From NCBI RefSeq assembly GCF_046105845.1, contig NZ_CP151004.1: 64,000 nt of DNA, one strand, 5' to 3'. Positions 218 through 29,013 of the stretch are shown one piece after another; positions within the stretch are counted from its first letter, which is position 1, and each line of letters opens with the position of its first letter. The notes under the pieces were generated by a model that made no database searches, was not told the origin of the DNA, and worked only from the letters and a program-made list of their open reading frames with translations. Made by a program: the position numbers and the translations under genes. Source of the stretch: Escherichia coli. Lineage in GTDB: Bacteria; Pseudomonadota; Gammaproteobacteria; Enterobacterales; Enterobacteriaceae.

Positions 218-3892
<3,675 letters not shown>

Positions 3893-4414
3893 TTGTCATC
3901 CCTCCTCAGGGACGTAATAAGTTGATCCATCAATTATCAATGCATAGAAAACATATTATGTTTCGCGCTAACGATTATGCTGCGTTACAGACGAATGGTT
4001 CAATTATTCTTTCCCCTAAGTCCGAATGTGGACATATATAATTTATGGAGAAAAATACACACCGAATTGATAAAAACACCATATTTCAATATGTTGCAGA
4101 TAATGTTATTTTTGAAACATACGCATCATAAATATCACAAACACAAACCAGACAAACATCCTATCAATATGCAACAAAGTTTTAATTATTCAATTTATAG
4201 CAGCAAAACCAAACCCCAAAAATAATAACCAAGAACTATAAATAAAAATTAAAAATATTTTCAGTGAATATGAAATTATTGCTGTTTCTATTACAAAGAT
4301 GTCCTGGCCTCTCTTCCATTCTCTTCTTGTCAACATCGCGACAACTTTCGTAAAACATCCCCACCCTGCTTCAGGTATACTATGCCCCTCGATTCCACAA
4401 ACATCAGGCAGACC

Positions 4415-5389
4415 ATGACAGACTTAATCCAACGCCCTCGTCGCCTGCGCAAATCTCCTGCGCTGCGCGCTATGTTTGAAGAGACAACACTTAGCCTTAA
4501 CGACCTGGTGTTGCCGATCTTTGTTGAAGAAGAAATTGACGACTACAAAGCCGTTGAAGCCATGCCAGGCGTGATGCGCATTCCAGAGAAACATCTGGCA
4601 CGCGAAATTGAACGCATCGCCAACGCCGGTATTCGTTCCGTGATGACTTTCGGCATCTCTCACCATACCGATGAAACCGGCAGCGACGCCTGGCGGGAAG
4701 ATGGACTGGTGGCGCGTATGTCGCGCATATGCAAGCAGACTGTGCCAGAAATGATCGTCATGTCAGACACTTGTTTCTGTGAATACACTTCTCACGGTCA
4801 CTGCGGTGTGCTGTGCGAGCATGGCGTCGACAACGACGCGACTCTGGAAAATTTAGGCAAGCAAGCCGTGGTTGCAGCTGCTGCAGGTGCAGACTTCATC
4901 GCCCCTTCCGCCGCGATGGACGGCCAGGTACAGGCGATTCGTCAGGCGCTGGACGCTGCGGGCTTTAAAGATACGGCGATTATGTCGTATTCGACCAAGT
5001 TCGCCTCTTCCTTTTATGGTCCGTTCCGTGAAGCTGCCGGAAGCGCATTAAAAGGCGACCGCAAAAGCTATCAGATGAACCCGATGAACCGCCGCGAAGC
5101 GATTCGTGAATCACTGCTGGATGAAGCCCAGGGCGCAGACTGCCTGATGGTTAAACCAGCTGGAGCGTACCTCGACATCGTGCGTGAGCTGCGTGAACGT
5201 ACTGAATTGCCGATTGGTGCGTATCAGGTGAGCGGTGAGTACGCGATGATTAAGTTCGCCGCGCTGGCGGGTGCTATAGATGAAGAGAAAGTCGTGCTCG
5301 AAAGCTTAGGTTCGATTAAGCGTGCGGGTGCGGATCTGATTTTCAGCTACTTTGCGCTGGATCTGGCTGAGAAGAAGATTCTGCGTTAA
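4415..5389 (+). CDS. hemB: Porphobilinogen synthase (delta-aminolevulinate dehydratase)
   Basis: Protein begins [28 protein letters not shown]; start trimmed from track ORF (4382) to the ATG at 4415 giving 324 aa. Confidence 0.93.
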
Positions 5390-5399
5390 TGATCATTAT

Positions 5400-5431
5400 G
5401 CCGGGTTATCCCAACCCGGCATTTCCTCTTC
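5400..5431. terminator. Bidirectional rho-independent terminator between convergent hemB and tauD
   Basis: GCCGGGTT-ATCCC-AACCCGGC followed by ATTTCCTCTTC on the + strand. Confidence 0.55.
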
Positions 5432-6281
5432 ACCCCGCCCGATAAAACGGTTTATCCCCAAGGATCGTCGCCCGATGCATAATCCGCCGCTGTGGCAGGT
5501 AATCCGCATTGGCATAGTGCTGAGTCACGCGATTATCCCAAATCGCAATATCATTCGGTTGCCAGCGCCAGCGCACCTGAAACTCCGGTTTGGTGATATG
5601 GGCAAACAAAAAACTTAACAAGGCTTCGCTCTCTTTCTCGCTCACATCAACAATTCGCGTAGTAAAGCCTTCATTCACAAACAGCGCCTGTTTACCGCTC
5701 ACCGGATGCGTTCGCACCACCGGATGTAGCAACGGCGGGTTTTTCGCGACCGCCTCGCGCCAGCGTTGATGTTCCTCCTCGGTTTTGCGGTATTTGTATT
5801 CCGGGAACGATTTACGGAAATCATGCTCCGCACGCAGCCCGCTCAGCAGCTGGCGGAAGGGAACAGAGAGCGCCTCATAGGCCGCAATACCGCTGGTCCA
5901 GAGCGTATCACCGCCGGTCGAAGGTAACTCTTTAGCTGCCAGAATCGCCCCTGCGGGTGGCGTTTCAATAAATGTCACATCGGTATGCCAGTTGTCGTTA
6001 TCTGGCGGATTATCGTTATGGGTATCCAGCACGATGATCTCGTCAACCCCTTCGGCATGAGGGTAAACAGGGTGAATATGCAGTTCGCCAAAACGCTGGG
6101 CCAGCGCGCGTTGCTGCAGCGGCGTAATGGCCTGTTCACGCAGAAACACCACCTGATGGCGCAGTACCGCATGGTAAAGCTGTTCAAACTGGTTATCACT
6201 TAACGGGCGCGTCAGGTCGGCACCCGTAATTTGTGCGCCAATATACGGCCCCAGCGGGGTAATGCTCAGACGTTCACTCAT
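5430..6281 (-). CDS. tauD: Taurine dioxygenase (alpha-ketoglutarate dependent)
   Basis: 283 aa, begins [23 protein letters not shown]; last gene of tauABCD. Confidence 0.95.
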
Positions 6282-7105
6282 TGTACTTCTCCATGCCAGG
6301 GCGTCAGGCGGCGCTGTAACGCGCGCAGACCCAGTTCTAAAAGAAAGGCGATAATCGCAATCACCGCGATCCCCGCCAGCACCACGTCAGTCGCGAGAAA
6401 TTCACCCGCTGACTGAACCATAAATCCTAAACCGCGCGTCGCGGCAATCAGCTCCGCCGCCACCAGCGTAGACCAGCCCACACCCAGACCAATACGTAAT
6501 CCGGTGAGGATTTCCGGCAGCGCGCCGGGCAAAATGACAAACCACAGCACCTGCGCACGGCTGGCACCCAGAGACTGGGCGGCACGAATGCGAACCTGCT
6601 GCGCGCTTTTCACCCCCGCCAGCGCCGACATCGCCACCGGTGCAAAAATCGCTAAATAGATCAGTAAGATCTTCGAGGTTTCACCAATACCAAACCAGAT
6701 CACCATCAGCGGCAAATACGCCAGCGGCGGCACCGGGCGATACAATTCAATTACCGGATCCAGAATGCCGCGCACCGTCGGGCTTAGTCCCATGGCGATC
6801 CCGACCGGAATGCCGATCAACACCGCCGCAAGTAGCGCCAGCATAATGCGCGTCAGGCTGGCTGCCAGATGCTGCCACAGGGTGGCGTCCATAAATCCCT
6901 GCGGCCCGGCAATGGTGAGCAGTTTTGCCAGTACCTGTTGCGGTGGCGGCAAAAACAGCGGGCTAATCAGGTGCAGCGCCGCGACTGCCCACCATACAGT
7001 GAGCAAAATCGCTAACGTGCCAATGCTTAAGGTCACCTGACGCGAGAGCGGCCAGCGCCATTTCAGCCGACGCGAATGCAGTTTTTCATTAATGAGCACA
7101 CTCAT
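6278..7105 (-). CDS. tauC: Taurine ABC transporter permease
   Basis: 275-aa polytopic membrane protein; start/stop overlaps with tauB and tauD. Confidence 0.93.
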
Positions 7106-10146: not shown

Positions 10147-11343
10147 ATGAAAACCTGGATATTTATCTGTATGTCCATAGCAATGTTGCTATGGTTTTTA
10201 AGTACGCTAAAACGTAAACCCAGTCAAAAGAAAGGCTGTATTGACGCAATTATACCTGCTTATAACGAAGGCCCGTGTCTGGCACAGTCACTGGATAATC
10301 TGCTGCGTAACCCTTATTTTTGCCGGGTAATTTGCGTAAACGACGGCTCCACGGACAATACCGAAGCGGTCATGGAGGAAGTCAAACGCAAATGGGGCGA
10401 CCGCTTTGTTGCCGTCACGCAAAAAAATACCGGTAAAGGTGGTGCGCTGATGAATGGCCTCAATTACGCCACCTGCGACCAGGTTTTTTTAAGTGATGCC
10501 GACACCTATGTTCCGCCCGATCAAGACGGAATGGGCTATATGCTGGCAGAAATTGAGCGCGGTGCCGATGCCGTAGGCGGCATTCCCTCTACTGCGTTGA
10601 AAGGCGCGGGTCTGTTACCACACATCCGCGCGACCGTAAAGTTGCCGATGATTGTTATGAAGCGCACGCTACAGCAGCTCGTGGGCGGCGCACCGTTTAT
10701 TATCAGCGGTGCCTGCGGGATGTTCCGTACTGATGTATTGCGTAAGTTCGGTTTCTCAGATCGTACTAAAGTCGAAGACCTTGATCTCACCTGGACATTG
10801 GTGGCAAACGGCTACCGTATTCGGCAGGCGAATCGCTGCATCGTATACCCACAGGAATGCAACAGCCCGCGTGAGGAGTGGCGTCGCTGGCGGCGTTGGA
10901 TTGTGGGCTACGCGGTCTGTATGCGCCTGCATAAAAGACTTTTATTTAGCCGCTTCGGTATCTTCAGTATATTTCCTATGCTGTTGGTTGTGCTTTATGG
11001 CGTTGGGATTTATCTCACTACCTGGTTTAATGAATTCATCACCACCGGGCCGCATGGTGTGGTGTTGGCAATGTTTCCGCTTATCTGGGTCGGCGTAGTT
11101 TGTGTTATTGGTGCTTTTAGCGCCTGGTTTCATCGTTGCTGGTTGTTGGTGCCTTTAGCGCCGCTTTCCGTTGTGTATGTATTATTAGCTTATGCCATCT
11201 GGATTATTTATGGACTTATTGCCTTTTTTACTGGACGCGAACCTCAGCGCGACAAACCCACCCGCTATTCCGCACTGGTGGAAGCGTCAACCGCTTATTC
11301 CCAACCTTCTGCTACAGGAACTGAAAAACTATCTGAAGCTTAA
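10147..11343 (+). CDS. yaiP: Family 2 glycosyltransferase with C-terminal multi-TM domain (processive-synthase-like)
   Basis: 398 aa; N-terminal TM helix, GT-A motifs (NDGSTDNT, SDADTY), WRRWRRW (QxxRW-like) followed by four predicted TM helices. Confidence 0.88.
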   Translation: MKTWIFICMSIAMLLWFLSTLKRKPSQKKGCIDAIIPAYNEGPCLAQSLDNLLRNPYFCRVICVNDGSTDNTEAVMEEVKRKWGDRFVAVTQKNTGKGGALMNGLNYATCDQVFLSDADTYVPPDQDGMGYMLAEIERGADAVGGIPSTALKGAGLLPHIRATVKLPMIVMKRTLQQLVGGAPFIISGACGMFRTDVLRKFGFSDRTKVEDLDLTWTLVANGYRIRQANRCIVYPQECNSPREEWRRWRRWIVGYAVCMRLHKRLLFSRFGIFSIFPMLLVVLYGVGIYLTTWFNEFITTGPHGVVLAMFPLIWVGVVCVIGAFSAWFHRCWLLVPLAPLSVVYVLLAYAIWIIYGLIAFFTGREPQRDKPTRYSALVEASTAYSQPSATGTEKLSEA

Positions 11344-11902
11344 TGTTAAAGAGAAAAACATTCAGATTGCAGACCAGGTAATTATTGATGAAACTGCAGG
11401 TGAAGTTGTTATCGGCGCGAATACCCGTATTTGTCATGGTGCCGTTATTCAGGGTCCGGTAGTGATTGGCGCAAACTGCCTGATAGGTAATTATGCGTTT
11501 ATTCGTCCTGGCACAATAATCAGCAATGGCGTAAAAATTGGTTTTGCCACCGAAATTAAAAATGCGGTTATTGAAGCGGAAGCAACGATTGGTCCGCAAT
11601 GCTTTATCGCCGACTCGGTAGTTGCAAACCAGGCATATTTGGGCGCACAAGTACGTACCAGTAATCATCGTCTGGATGAACAGCCCGTGTCTGTTAGAAC
11701 TCCAGAGGGAATTATCGCTACCGGATGCGATAAATTAGGTTGTTATATCGGGCAGCGTTCACGCCTTGGCGTACAAGTTATTATTTTGCCTGGGCGAATT
11801 ATTTCCCCGAACACGCAACTTGGCCCGCGCGTGATTGTAGAACGTAATTTACCTCCCGGAACTTATTCACTCCGACAAGAACTTATCCGTACAGGAGATT
11901 AA
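11192..11902 (+). CDS. yaiX: Hexapeptide-repeat (left-handed beta-helix) acyl/acetyltransferase, intact YaiX; start uncertain
   Basis: Repeating [LIV]-G-x-x-x-x hexapeptide pattern; no in-frame ATG/GTG/TTG downstream of the yaiP stop (11343), so the ORF must start at ATG 11192 or 11210, overlapping the yaiP 3' end out of frame. Confidence 0.6.
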   Translation: MPSGLFMDLLPFLLDANLSATNPPAIPHWWKRQPLIPNLLLQELKNYLKLNVKEKNIQIADQVIIDETAGEVVIGANTRICHGAVIQGPVVIGANCLIGNYAFIRPGTIISNGVKIGFATEIKNAVIEAEATIGPQCFIADSVVANQAYLGAQVRTSNHRLDEQPVSVRTPEGIIATGCDKLGCYIGQRSRLGVQVIILPGRIISPNTQLGPRVIVERNLPPGTYSLRQELIRTGD

Positions 11903-11903
11903 A

Positions 11904-12677
11904 ATGATAAAACGGACGTTATTAGCGGCGGTCATTTTTAGCGCATTGCCCGCTTATGCCGGGTTAACTTCCATTACCGCGGGCTACGATTTTACCGATT
12001 ATTCTGGCGATCATGGCAACCGTAATTTAGCGTATGCTGAACTGGTGGCGAAAGTTGAAAACGCAACGCTGCTTTTTAATCTTTCCCAGGGGCGTCGTGA
12101 TTATGAAACTGAACATTTCAATGCCACTCGCGGTCAGGGTGCGGTCTGGTATAAATGGAATAACTGGCTGACAACCCGAACGGGTATTGCCTTTGCGGAT
12201 AATACGCCGGTCTTTGCCCGCCAGGATTTTCGTCAGGATATTAACCTGGCACTGTTGCCAAAAACGCTTTTCACGACCGGTTATCGCTACACGAAATATT
12301 ACGATGATGTCGAAGTCGATGCCTGGCAAGGCGGCGTATCACTCTATACTGGCCCGGTGATCACCAGCTATCGCTATACCCATTATGACTCCAGCGATGC
12401 AGGTGGTAGTTACAGCAATATGATTTCCGTGCGTCTGAATGACCCGCGCGGCACTGGTTATACGCAACTATGGCTAAGCCGCGGAACAGGTGCTTACACC
12501 TATGACTGGACGCCAGAAACACGCTACGGCAGCATGAAGAGCGTCAGTTTGCAACGTATTCAACCGCTGACTGAGCAACTTAATCTCGGGCTGACGGCAG
12601 GTAAAGTGTGGTACGACACCCCAACCGATGATTATAACGGTCTGCAACTTGCAGCCCATCTGACCTGGAAATTCTGA
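11904..12677 (+). CDS. yaiO: Outer-membrane beta-barrel protein YaiO
   Basis: 257 aa; signal peptide MIKRTLLAAVIFSALPAYA; C-terminal ...LTWKF; GGAG RBS; starts 2 nt after the yaiX stop. Confidence 0.88.
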   Translation: MIKRTLLAAVIFSALPAYAGLTSITAGYDFTDYSGDHGNRNLAYAELVAKVENATLLFNLSQGRRDYETEHFNATRGQGAVWYKWNNWLTTRTGIAFADNTPVFARQDFRQDINLALLPKTLFTTGYRYTKYYDDVEVDAWQGGVSLYTGPVITSYRYTHYDSSDAGGSYSNMISVRLNDPRGTGYTQLWLSRGTGAYTYDWTPETRYGSMKSVSLQRIQPLTEQLNLGLTAGKVWYDTPTDDYNGLQLAAHLTWKF

Positions 12678-12685
12678 TTCCTTCT

Positions 12686-12707
12686 GCCGCCCGCTATCCG
12701 GGGCGGC
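12686..12707 (+). terminator. GC-rich hairpin downstream of yaiO (candidate terminator, no U-tract)
   Basis: GCCGCCC-loop-GGGCGGC immediately after the yaiO stop. Confidence 0.3.
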
Positions 12708-12787
12708 CTTCCCTGCCGATTAGCCCCACCCCCTTTCCTCTTTGTTTTCCGACCACATTCACCGGATAAATTTTATTCTCCAGTGTT

Positions 12788-12840
12788 ATATACTATAGGG
12801 GGGTATGTATTGACATATAGAATACCCCCCTATAGTATAT
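12788..12840 (+). promoter_or_regulatory. frmRAB promoter-operator: two 19-bp inverted arms with G6/C6 tracts (CsoR/RcnR-family FrmR site type) flanking a TTGACA -35
   Basis: ATATACTATAGGGGGGTAT (12788-12806) and ATACCCCCCTATAGTATAT (12822-12840) are exact reverse complements; TTGACA at 12810-12815; frmR ATG at 12865. Confidence 0.7.
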
Positions 12841-12864
12841 TGCATGCAGATGATGAGGTGCGAA

Positions 12865-13140
12865 ATGCCCAGTACTCCGGAAGAGAAGAAAAAGGTCCTT
12901 ACTCGAGTTCGTCGTATTCGGGGGCAAATTGATGCTCTGGAACGGTCGCTGGAGGGTGATGCCGAATGCCGTGCCATACTCCAACAGATCGCTGCCGTTC
13001 GGGGCGCGGCTAACGGGCTGATGGCAGAAGTGCTTGAAAGCCATATCCGGGAAACGTTTGACCGAAATGACTGCTACAGCCGCGAAGTCAGCCAATCCGT
13101 TGACGACACTATTGAACTGGTTCGTGCCTATCTTAAATAG
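12865..13140 (+). CDS. frmR: Formaldehyde-responsive repressor FrmR (CsoR/RcnR family)
   Basis: 91 aa from ATG at 12865 ([31 protein letters not shown]...) preceded by GAGG; track ORF starts 21 nt earlier. Confidence 0.93.
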
Positions 13141-13144
13141 CTGA

Positions 13145-14284
<1,140 letters not shown>

Positions 14285-14375: not shown

Positions 14376-15209
14376 ATGGAACTCATTGAAAAACATGCCA
14401 GCTTTGGCGGCTGGCAAAATGTGTATCGGCATTATTCCCCATCACTGAAATGTGAAATGAATGTCGGCGTCTATCTCCCACCAAAAGCCGCAAGTGAAAA
14501 ATTGCCGGTGTTGTACTGGCTTTCAGGGCTGACTTGCAACGAGCAGAATTTCATTACTAAATCGGGGATGCAACGTTACGCGGCTGAGCACAACATTATT
14601 GTTGTTGCGCCGGACACCAGTCCGCGAGGCAGTCATGTCGCAGATGCTGACCGTTACGATCTCGGGCAAGGTGCCGGGTTTTACCTGAACGCAACGCAAG
14701 CGCCGTGGAATGAACATTACAAAATGTATGACTATATCCGCAACGAGCTGCCGGATTTAGTGATGCAACATTTTCCGGCAACGGCCAGAAAGTCTATCTC
14801 AGGTCATTCTATGGGCGGGCTGGGCGCACTGGTGCTGGCGTTACGTAACCCAGATGAATATGTCAGCGTCTCGGCGTTTTCGCCCATTGTCTCCCCATCG
14901 CAAGTACCGTGGGGACAGCAAGCCTTTGCCGCATATCTTGGTGAAAAAAAAGATGCCTGGTTGGATTACGACCCGGTGAGTCTTATTTCACAAGGTCAAC
15001 GCGTTGCGGAAATCATGGTTGATCAGGGATTGAGTGATGATTTTTACGCAGAACAGCTGCGGACTCCAAATCTTGAAAAGATCTGCCAGGAGATGAATAT
15101 CAAGACGTTAATCCGTTATCACGAGGGTTATGATCACAGCTATTATTTTGTCTCCAGTTTTATTGGCGAGCATATTGCCTACCACGCCAATAAACTGAAT
15201 ATGCGTTAA
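14376..15209 (+). CDS. frmB: S-formylglutathione hydrolase
   Basis: 277-aa esterase with GHSMGG serine motif. Confidence 0.94.
   Translation: MELIEKHASFGGWQNVYRHYSPSLKCEMNVGVYLPPKAASEKLPVLYWLSGLTCNEQNFITKSGMQRYAAEHNIIVVAPDTSPRGSHVADADRYDLGQGAGFYLNATQAPWNEHYKMYDYIRNELPDLVMQHFPATARKSISGHSMGGLGALVLALRNPDEYVSVSAFSPIVSPSQVPWGQQAFAAYLGEKKDAWLDYDPVSLISQGQRVAEIMVDQGLSDDFYAEQLRTPNLEKICQEMNIKTLIRYHEGYDHSYYFVSSFIGEHIAYHANKLNMR

Positions 15210-25900: not shown

Positions 25901-29013
<3,113 letters not shown>

Follow-up and report, generated by a model that had tools for sequence, protein, structure and literature searches.

A palindrome at the Escherichia coli frmRAB promoter, read as a two-site FrmR operator

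The large inverted repeat at the Escherichia coli frmRAB promoter (Pfrm) has been described as tandem type I sites for the repressor FrmR, centred at -29 of a predicted transcription start (Denby et al. 2016, Sci Rep 6:38879, PMC5146963). FrmR binds Pfrm DNA with a Kd of ~220 nM, against ~3600 nM for control DNA, and formaldehyde treatment abolishes its binding to an E. coli Pfrm PCR fragment in BLItz assays (Denby et al. 2016, PMC5146963). In the same study, in-vitro transcription of frmRAB was inhibited in an FrmR-dependent manner, formaldehyde relieved the inhibition, and the solved FrmR structure contained Pro2-Cys35 methylene bridges (Denby et al. 2016, PMC5146963). In Salmonella, two FrmR tetramers bind each 33-bp probe, which carries a C6 tract with T/A-rich flanks, and mutation of one flank abolishes binding (Osman et al. 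2015/2016). Synthetic promoters given ATAC-N9-GTAT at the same positions became FrmR-repressible (2024 biosensor paper, PMC11127321). Repression was reported lost from a truncated PfrmR with both sites but without upstream DNA (PMC11127321), so the two sites alone may not suffice, and flanking DNA or wrapping may contribute; DNA wrapping has been proposed for RcnR (Denby et al. 2016, PMC5146963).

The frm operator is already a part in formaldehyde and methylglyoxal biosensors. The literature searched contained no FrmR footprint or EMSA paper and, for the E. coli operator, neither base-resolution footprinting nor mutagenesis of individual sites; a word search of both key FrmR papers found neither "footprint" nor "EMSA". 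Rohlhill et al. 2017 reportedly performed sort-seq mutagenesis of Pfrm, and per-base functional data are probably to be had there; reviews citing that work gave no base-level detail on Pfrm. The palindrome analysed here lies in a 64,000-nt stretch of E. coli DNA (the window). It is real, was correctly located and interpreted in an earlier note on this DNA, and has been known since 2016.

Anatomy of the operator and promoter

The earlier note described two exact 19-bp arms with G6/C6 tracts and ATAC/GTAT flanks bracketing a TTGACA hexamer, and an inverted-repeat search and direct reading confirmed this arrangement (Table 1). The arms, ATATACTATAGGGGGGTAT and ATACCCCCCTATAGTATAT, are 19 nt each and 100% complementary, with a 15-nt spacer, gtaTTGACAtataga, that contains TTGACA. 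Each arm holds one ATAC-N9-GTAT unit, in which the final base of the tract doubles as the G of GTAT or the C of ATAC. The two units are inverted relative to each other, with 32 bp between centres. They are the only two matches to ATAC-N9-GTAT in the 64-kb window, where 0.45 would be expected. A scan of the window for other inverted repeats of at least 14 nt within 80 nt returned one, a 15-nt overlapping palindrome at 26037-26054 (TTTCGCCAGCTGGCGTAA), and no second repeat of comparable quality.

Table 1. Features of the frmRAB control region and operon, in window coordinates.
Feature	Coordinates	Strand	Details
Left arm of 53-bp palindrome	12788-12806		Putative FrmR site 1, ATAC-TATAGGGGG-GTAT, 12790-12806; G6 at 12798-12803; about -54 to -38 relative to the predicted start
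Predicted -35, TTGACA	12810-12815	+	Promoter scan, 6/6; in the spacer between the FrmR sites
Right arm of palindrome	12822-12840		Putative FrmR site 2, ATAC-CCCCCTATA-GTAT, 12822-12838; C6 at 12825-12830; about -22 to -6
Predicted -10, TAGTAT	12833-12838	+	Promoter scan; 17 nt after the -35; within FrmR site 2
Predicted transcription start zone	12843-12846	+	From the -10 position and the published repeat centre at -29
Shine-Dalgarno, GAGG	12855-12858	+	Read from the sequence; 6 nt ahead of the frmR ATG; conserved in homologous loci
frmR, CsoR/RcnR-family repressor	12865-13140	+	91 aa; PF02583, E = 3e-23; Pro2, Cys35, His60
frmA, S-(hydroxymethyl)glutathione dehydrogenase	13175-14284	+	ADH_N and ADH_zinc_N domains
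frmB, S-formylglutathione hydrolase	14376-15209	+	Esterase PF00756

The two promoter hexamers are separated by 17 nt, within the 16-18 nt of sigma-70 promoters. Together they give 10/12 sigma-70 matches and form the sole promoter-like match in 12600-13200. The palindrome is centred at 12814, and the predicted start agrees with the -29 centring of Denby et al. The overlap of operator and predicted promoter, like the anatomy of the operator, is seen in the sequence: site 1 stops 3 nt short of the -35, and site 2 overlaps the promoter spacer and the entire -10. The description of the palindromes as lying around the -35 was thus true as far as it went but incomplete, as the right arm also holds the predicted -10. 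The main clash with RNA polymerase is probably at the -10, inside site 2.

The title "frmRAB control region" was correct because frmR, frmA and frmB lie downstream and Pro2, Cys35 and His60 are present; domain matches (PF02583, zinc alcohol dehydrogenase and esterase) and RefSeq annotation bear it out. RefSeq annotates frmR directly downstream of the homologous position in >5000 complete E. coli genomes. The frmR start was taken as the ATG at 12865; the ORF finder had placed it at 12844. The three residues that mark the FrmR subgroup are found in the translation (AEC35R and H60) and are invariant among FrmR homologues in the protein alignment. Type I CsoR/RcnR operators have a central G/C tract of 3-8 bp (Denby et al. 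2016) within an AT-rich inverted repeat, in the promoter of an operon encoding, or controlled by, a PF02583 repressor. Here the tracts are G6 and C6, ATAC...GTAT surrounds the tract at both sites, and frmR begins 25 nt past the right arm.

The gene yaiO adjoins on the upstream side. Just past its stop, at 12688-12710, lies a GC-rich hairpin (gccgccc-gctatcc-ggggcggc), possibly a weak terminator or REP-like element, that lacks a T-run and gave no call in the terminator scan. Elsewhere in the window, two open reading frames at 11192-11902 (236 aa) and 10147-11343 (398 aa) overlap by ~150 nt in different frames. The former is presumably yaiX, which is split by an IS element in K-12; if so, the window carries the uninterrupted form.

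Conservation and variation of the operator

Diverse FrmR proteins were aligned, and the best 80 homologous loci from reference genomes were compared. Of these 80 frmR loci, from many proteobacterial genera, 64 have ATAC-N9-GTAT in the 150 nt that precede the start codon; the rest of the 80 loci (231,187 nt) contains 0 matches. Conservation of the motif across this phylogenetic range is a direct observation, and by sequence comparison its distribution is a clean phylogenetic footprint. The 16 loci that lack an exact match have near-variants, such as ACTAT replacing AGTAT. One locus, L046 (JAHREJ010000012.1), is titled Bacillus subtilis and has a Stenotrophomonas-type frmR promoter, TATACTATCCCCCAGTATAG, closely like S. 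maltophilia loci; it is probably a contaminated or mislabelled assembly.

A single upstream site is found in 53 of the 80 loci; its median distance to the start codon is 37 nt, and its commonest form is ATACTATCCCCCAGTAT. Two sites are found in 11 of the 80, and nine of these fall in a clade, with FrmR at least 76% identical to the E. coli protein, that includes Escherichia, Edwardsiella and Enterobacter (which match the plasmid-type copy described below), Erwinia, Serratia and Deefgea. All nine keep a spacing of 32-34 bp across genera and have a TTGAC-like hexamer (TTGAC/TTGA/TTGC) between the sites; their site 2 invariably terminates in TATAGTAT, and site 1 varies more. The mirror symmetry of the pair is broken in Erwinia, Serratia and Deefgea (4-7 mismatches per 17), and ATAC...GTAT persists. 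The long perfect palindrome is thus lineage-specific, mainly in the E. coli-like clade, with the single site as the common state.

Recognition in the G-tract style of the CsoR/RcnR family had also been proposed. The type I definition applies here, but the hexa-G tract itself is unconserved, and homologues carry variants such as GTGGAG, GTGGTG, GAGGGA and GGGATA. With the frame kept while the tract varies, the determinant conserved across homologues is the frame ATAC(T)...(A)GTAT with a G/C-rich core inside it, rather than hexa-G.

The majority form in E. coli has arms that are perfect over 21 nt (...GGGGGGTATGC / GCATACCCCCC...) with TATGC/GCATA at the inner edges. Of 5426 complete E. coli genomes, 5365 contain the region, and 3409 match the majority-form 63-mer at every base. 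K-12-type strains (~1219 genomes) have A for the majority C at 12821. The window shares this A and additionally has T for C at 12808, and its exact 63-mer is found in 4 of 5426 genomes, such as strain ST2747 (NZ_CP007394.1). The arms are 19 nt here and 21 nt in most E. coli because of these two substitutions, which fall at the inner arm edges, outside the ATAC-N9-GTAT units. The arms in the window are a rare and slightly degraded form of the 21-nt arms typical of the species. A megablast search with the window's own 63-mer returned only 1224 genomes, against 5365 of 5426 with the majority sequence as query; the lower count is an artefact of the 28-nt word requirement and the window's two rare substitutions. 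In the sampled E. coli sequences, site 1 does not vary and copies site 2 perfectly.

The upstream neighbour of frmR varies by E. coli strain and may be yaiO, tauA (divergent) or fbpC (loci L003 and L004). Homology between strains resumes just 15-25 nt before the palindrome, at about 12765-12789 of the window. With homology resuming there despite the change of neighbour, the frm operon, together with its promoter, behaves like a module that is sharply bounded on its left side. Related frmR-frmA-VOC-fghA modules, at ~81% DNA identity, are found in 527 plasmid records, mostly conjugative Klebsiella or Enterobacter plasmids. Their homology to the window begins at the left edge of the palindrome (12789 onward). 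In K. pneumoniae plasmid pC588_2 (L085, CP067633.1), the module at 3500-6340 lies between Tn3-family transposase genes. A further PLSDB record, NZ_CP141089.1, is a 4.94-Mb E. coli entry with a chromosomal-type frm promoter at 98.9% identity and is presumably a chromosome filed as a plasmid.

Escherichia carries G6/C6 in its two arms and the Tn3-associated plasmid module carries GTGGAG/CTCCAC, and within each the arms are perfect copies. As the tracts differ between the lineages, each lineage changed both arms alike. From the few lineages compared, it is conceivable, though doubtful, that the two operator arms evolve in concert instead of independently. If they did, this would point to hairpin- or cruciform-templated homogenisation, or to selection that keeps a higher-order FrmR-operator complex strictly two-fold symmetric. 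We know of no description of either for CsoR/RcnR operators.

Proposed repression and its alternatives

The 53-bp palindrome is most probably (about 90%) the operator of an autoregulated frmRAB promoter, composed of two inverted type I sites that are occupied by FrmR and released by formaldehyde. When formaldehyde is absent, FrmR tetramers would sit on both sites, most likely one per site. With site 2 over the spacer and -10, and site 1 against the -35, RNA polymerase would be unable to form an open complex. Formaldehyde would cross-link Pro2 to Cys35 between subunits and remodel the DNA-binding face, and FrmR would then dissociate and allow transcription of frmR, frmA and frmB. Which bases FrmR contacts, its stoichiometry on the E. 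coli operator, where transcription starts and how the two sites share the work are inferred.

This account agrees with what the earlier note had proposed. Its assignment of the element to FrmR, as a CsoR/RcnR-type operator, is borne out by the tandem type I sites that Denby et al. published there. The polymerase occlusion that it expected to last until formaldehyde releases the repressor matches the FrmR-dependent, formaldehyde-relieved inhibition seen in vitro. The binding comparison with and without formaldehyde that it called for has been published at fragment level, with binding lost in formaldehyde (Denby et al. 2016, PMC5146963). Its reading is the published one, since that study shows FrmR binding, release by formaldehyde and repression in vitro.

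The two sites may contribute unequally. Site 2, with its C6 tract over the -10, may be the essential operator, and site 1 a dispensable accessory of E. coli-like lineages that tightens repression through cooperativity or wrapping; this would refine the main model, and we regard it as possible but on balance unlikely. Most homologues (53 of the best 80) manage with one site, so site 1 may not be needed. In Salmonella the operator has been described with one C6 site, which shares 16 identical nt with site 2, and across two-site loci the constant end belongs to site 2, which also overlaps the -10. The invariance of site 1 in sampled E. coli, its perfect match to site 2 and the 32-34 bp spacing kept across genera weigh against dispensability. 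A single 33-bp Salmonella site takes two tetramers, so the occupancy logic is not simple. The same observation bears on an arrangement raised by Denby et al., in which a single FrmR tetramer, through its two faces, holds both sites simultaneously and loops out the -35. They noted that a spacing larger than the 19 bp of RcnR "raises the possibility" (Denby et al. 2016, PMC5146963), and the arms are perfectly symmetric. With sites 32 bp apart, the duplex would have to make a U-turn in ~15 free bp, which should be energetically very unfavourable; Salmonella FrmR binds short DNA as two tetramers, and the authors' own figure models two. A bridging tetramer is therefore very unlikely, and separate occupancy of the two inverted sites is the preferred reading.

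Explanations without FrmR fare worse. The palindrome could act as a nucleic-acid structure, as a transcript hairpin by which the yaiO message would be terminated or stabilised, or as a cruciform in the DNA, and a single-strand fold of -18 kcal/mol (z = -6 against shuffles) would favour this. The strength of that fold comes from the palindrome itself. A scan of 12600-13200 gave no terminator-like call; the arm is followed by TGCATGCAG, not by a T-run, and the GC-rich stem-loop with T-run of an intrinsic terminator was not found there. No Rfam family matched at gathering score: the best match, to a eukaryotic miRNA hairpin family, reached 26 bits against a threshold of 84 bits, and all matches were sub-threshold chance ones to eukaryotic hairpin families. 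Terminator, RNA-structure and Rfam readings were rejected on these grounds. Comparative data largely refute the structural role as well: the palindrome travels with frmR when tauA or fbpC replaces yaiO and in plasmid copies, and Erwinia, Serratia and Deefgea retain ATAC...GTAT while their arms no longer pair at 4-7 of 17 positions. The predicted start at ~12844 also places the palindrome outside the Pfrm transcript. A structural role is accordingly highly improbable. A chance palindrome in AT-rich promoter DNA is already refuted and has a negligible probability. Arithmetic gives an expectation of ~5e-6 per 64 kb for perfect 19-nt inverted repeats whose spacer is at most 20 nt, which excludes chance; this repeat is the sole one of its kind in the window and is conserved in the great majority of E. 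coli genomes and across genera.

The discovery value of the element is small, as work published in 2016 already set out both its bipartite ATAC-N9-GTAT structure and the part it plays in formaldehyde-responsive repression. New here are the homologue footprint, the mostly single-site state, the unconserved G6 and the rare variant in the window. The unconserved hexa-G, the -10 inside the proximal site and the single-site norm can guide minimal-operator design and mutation priorities, which is of modest practical value.

Comparison with known systems

The E. coli K-12 Pfrm (Denby et al. 2016, Fig. 6a) is the same element, with both sites and their G6 and C6 tracts, TTGACA in between and frmR downstream. 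Both arms are identical to the window in the K-12 derivative C600. K-12 and the window share the A at 12821 and differ at 12808, where the window has T for C just inside the inner edge of the left arm. Denby et al. give a centre-to-centre spacing of 31 bp, and 32 bp were counted here.

The Salmonella Typhimurium frmRA operator (Osman 2015, 2016) likewise has a C6 tract in a T/A-rich inverted repeat and is bound by FrmR and released by formaldehyde. The Salmonella locus fell outside the best 80, and its published probe sequence was compared instead; the frmRAPro probe shares 16 nt, CCCCCCTATAGTATAT, with site 2. The operator differs in being described as a single C6 site, on whose 33-bp probe two tetramers assemble, with no upstream G6 partner or large palindrome described. 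Unlike the operon in the window, Salmonella frmRA is without frmB.

The RcnR operator at rcnR-rcnA (TACT-G6/7-N-AGTA; Iwig and Chivers, cited in Denby et al. 2016) is also a type I operator with two sites for a PF02583 tetramer, and the commonest FrmR site, ATACTATCCCCCAGTAT, also reads as TACT-N7-AGTA, as in the RcnR architecture. RcnR sites are direct repeats 19 bp apart, whereas the FrmR sites here are inverted and 32 bp apart, and the effector is Ni/Co for RcnR and formaldehyde for FrmR. The half-site spacing differs (TACT-ATA-G6 against TACT-G6), and cross-binding of RcnR was considered and found no support.

The plasmid module (pC588_2, CP067633.1) has a two-site palindrome around TTGAC, and its FrmR is ~90% identical in protein and ~81% in DNA. 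It differs in having GTGGAG/CTCCAC for G6/C6, with both arms changed identically and 18-nt perfect arms, in its 34-bp spacing and in its additional VOC-family gene.
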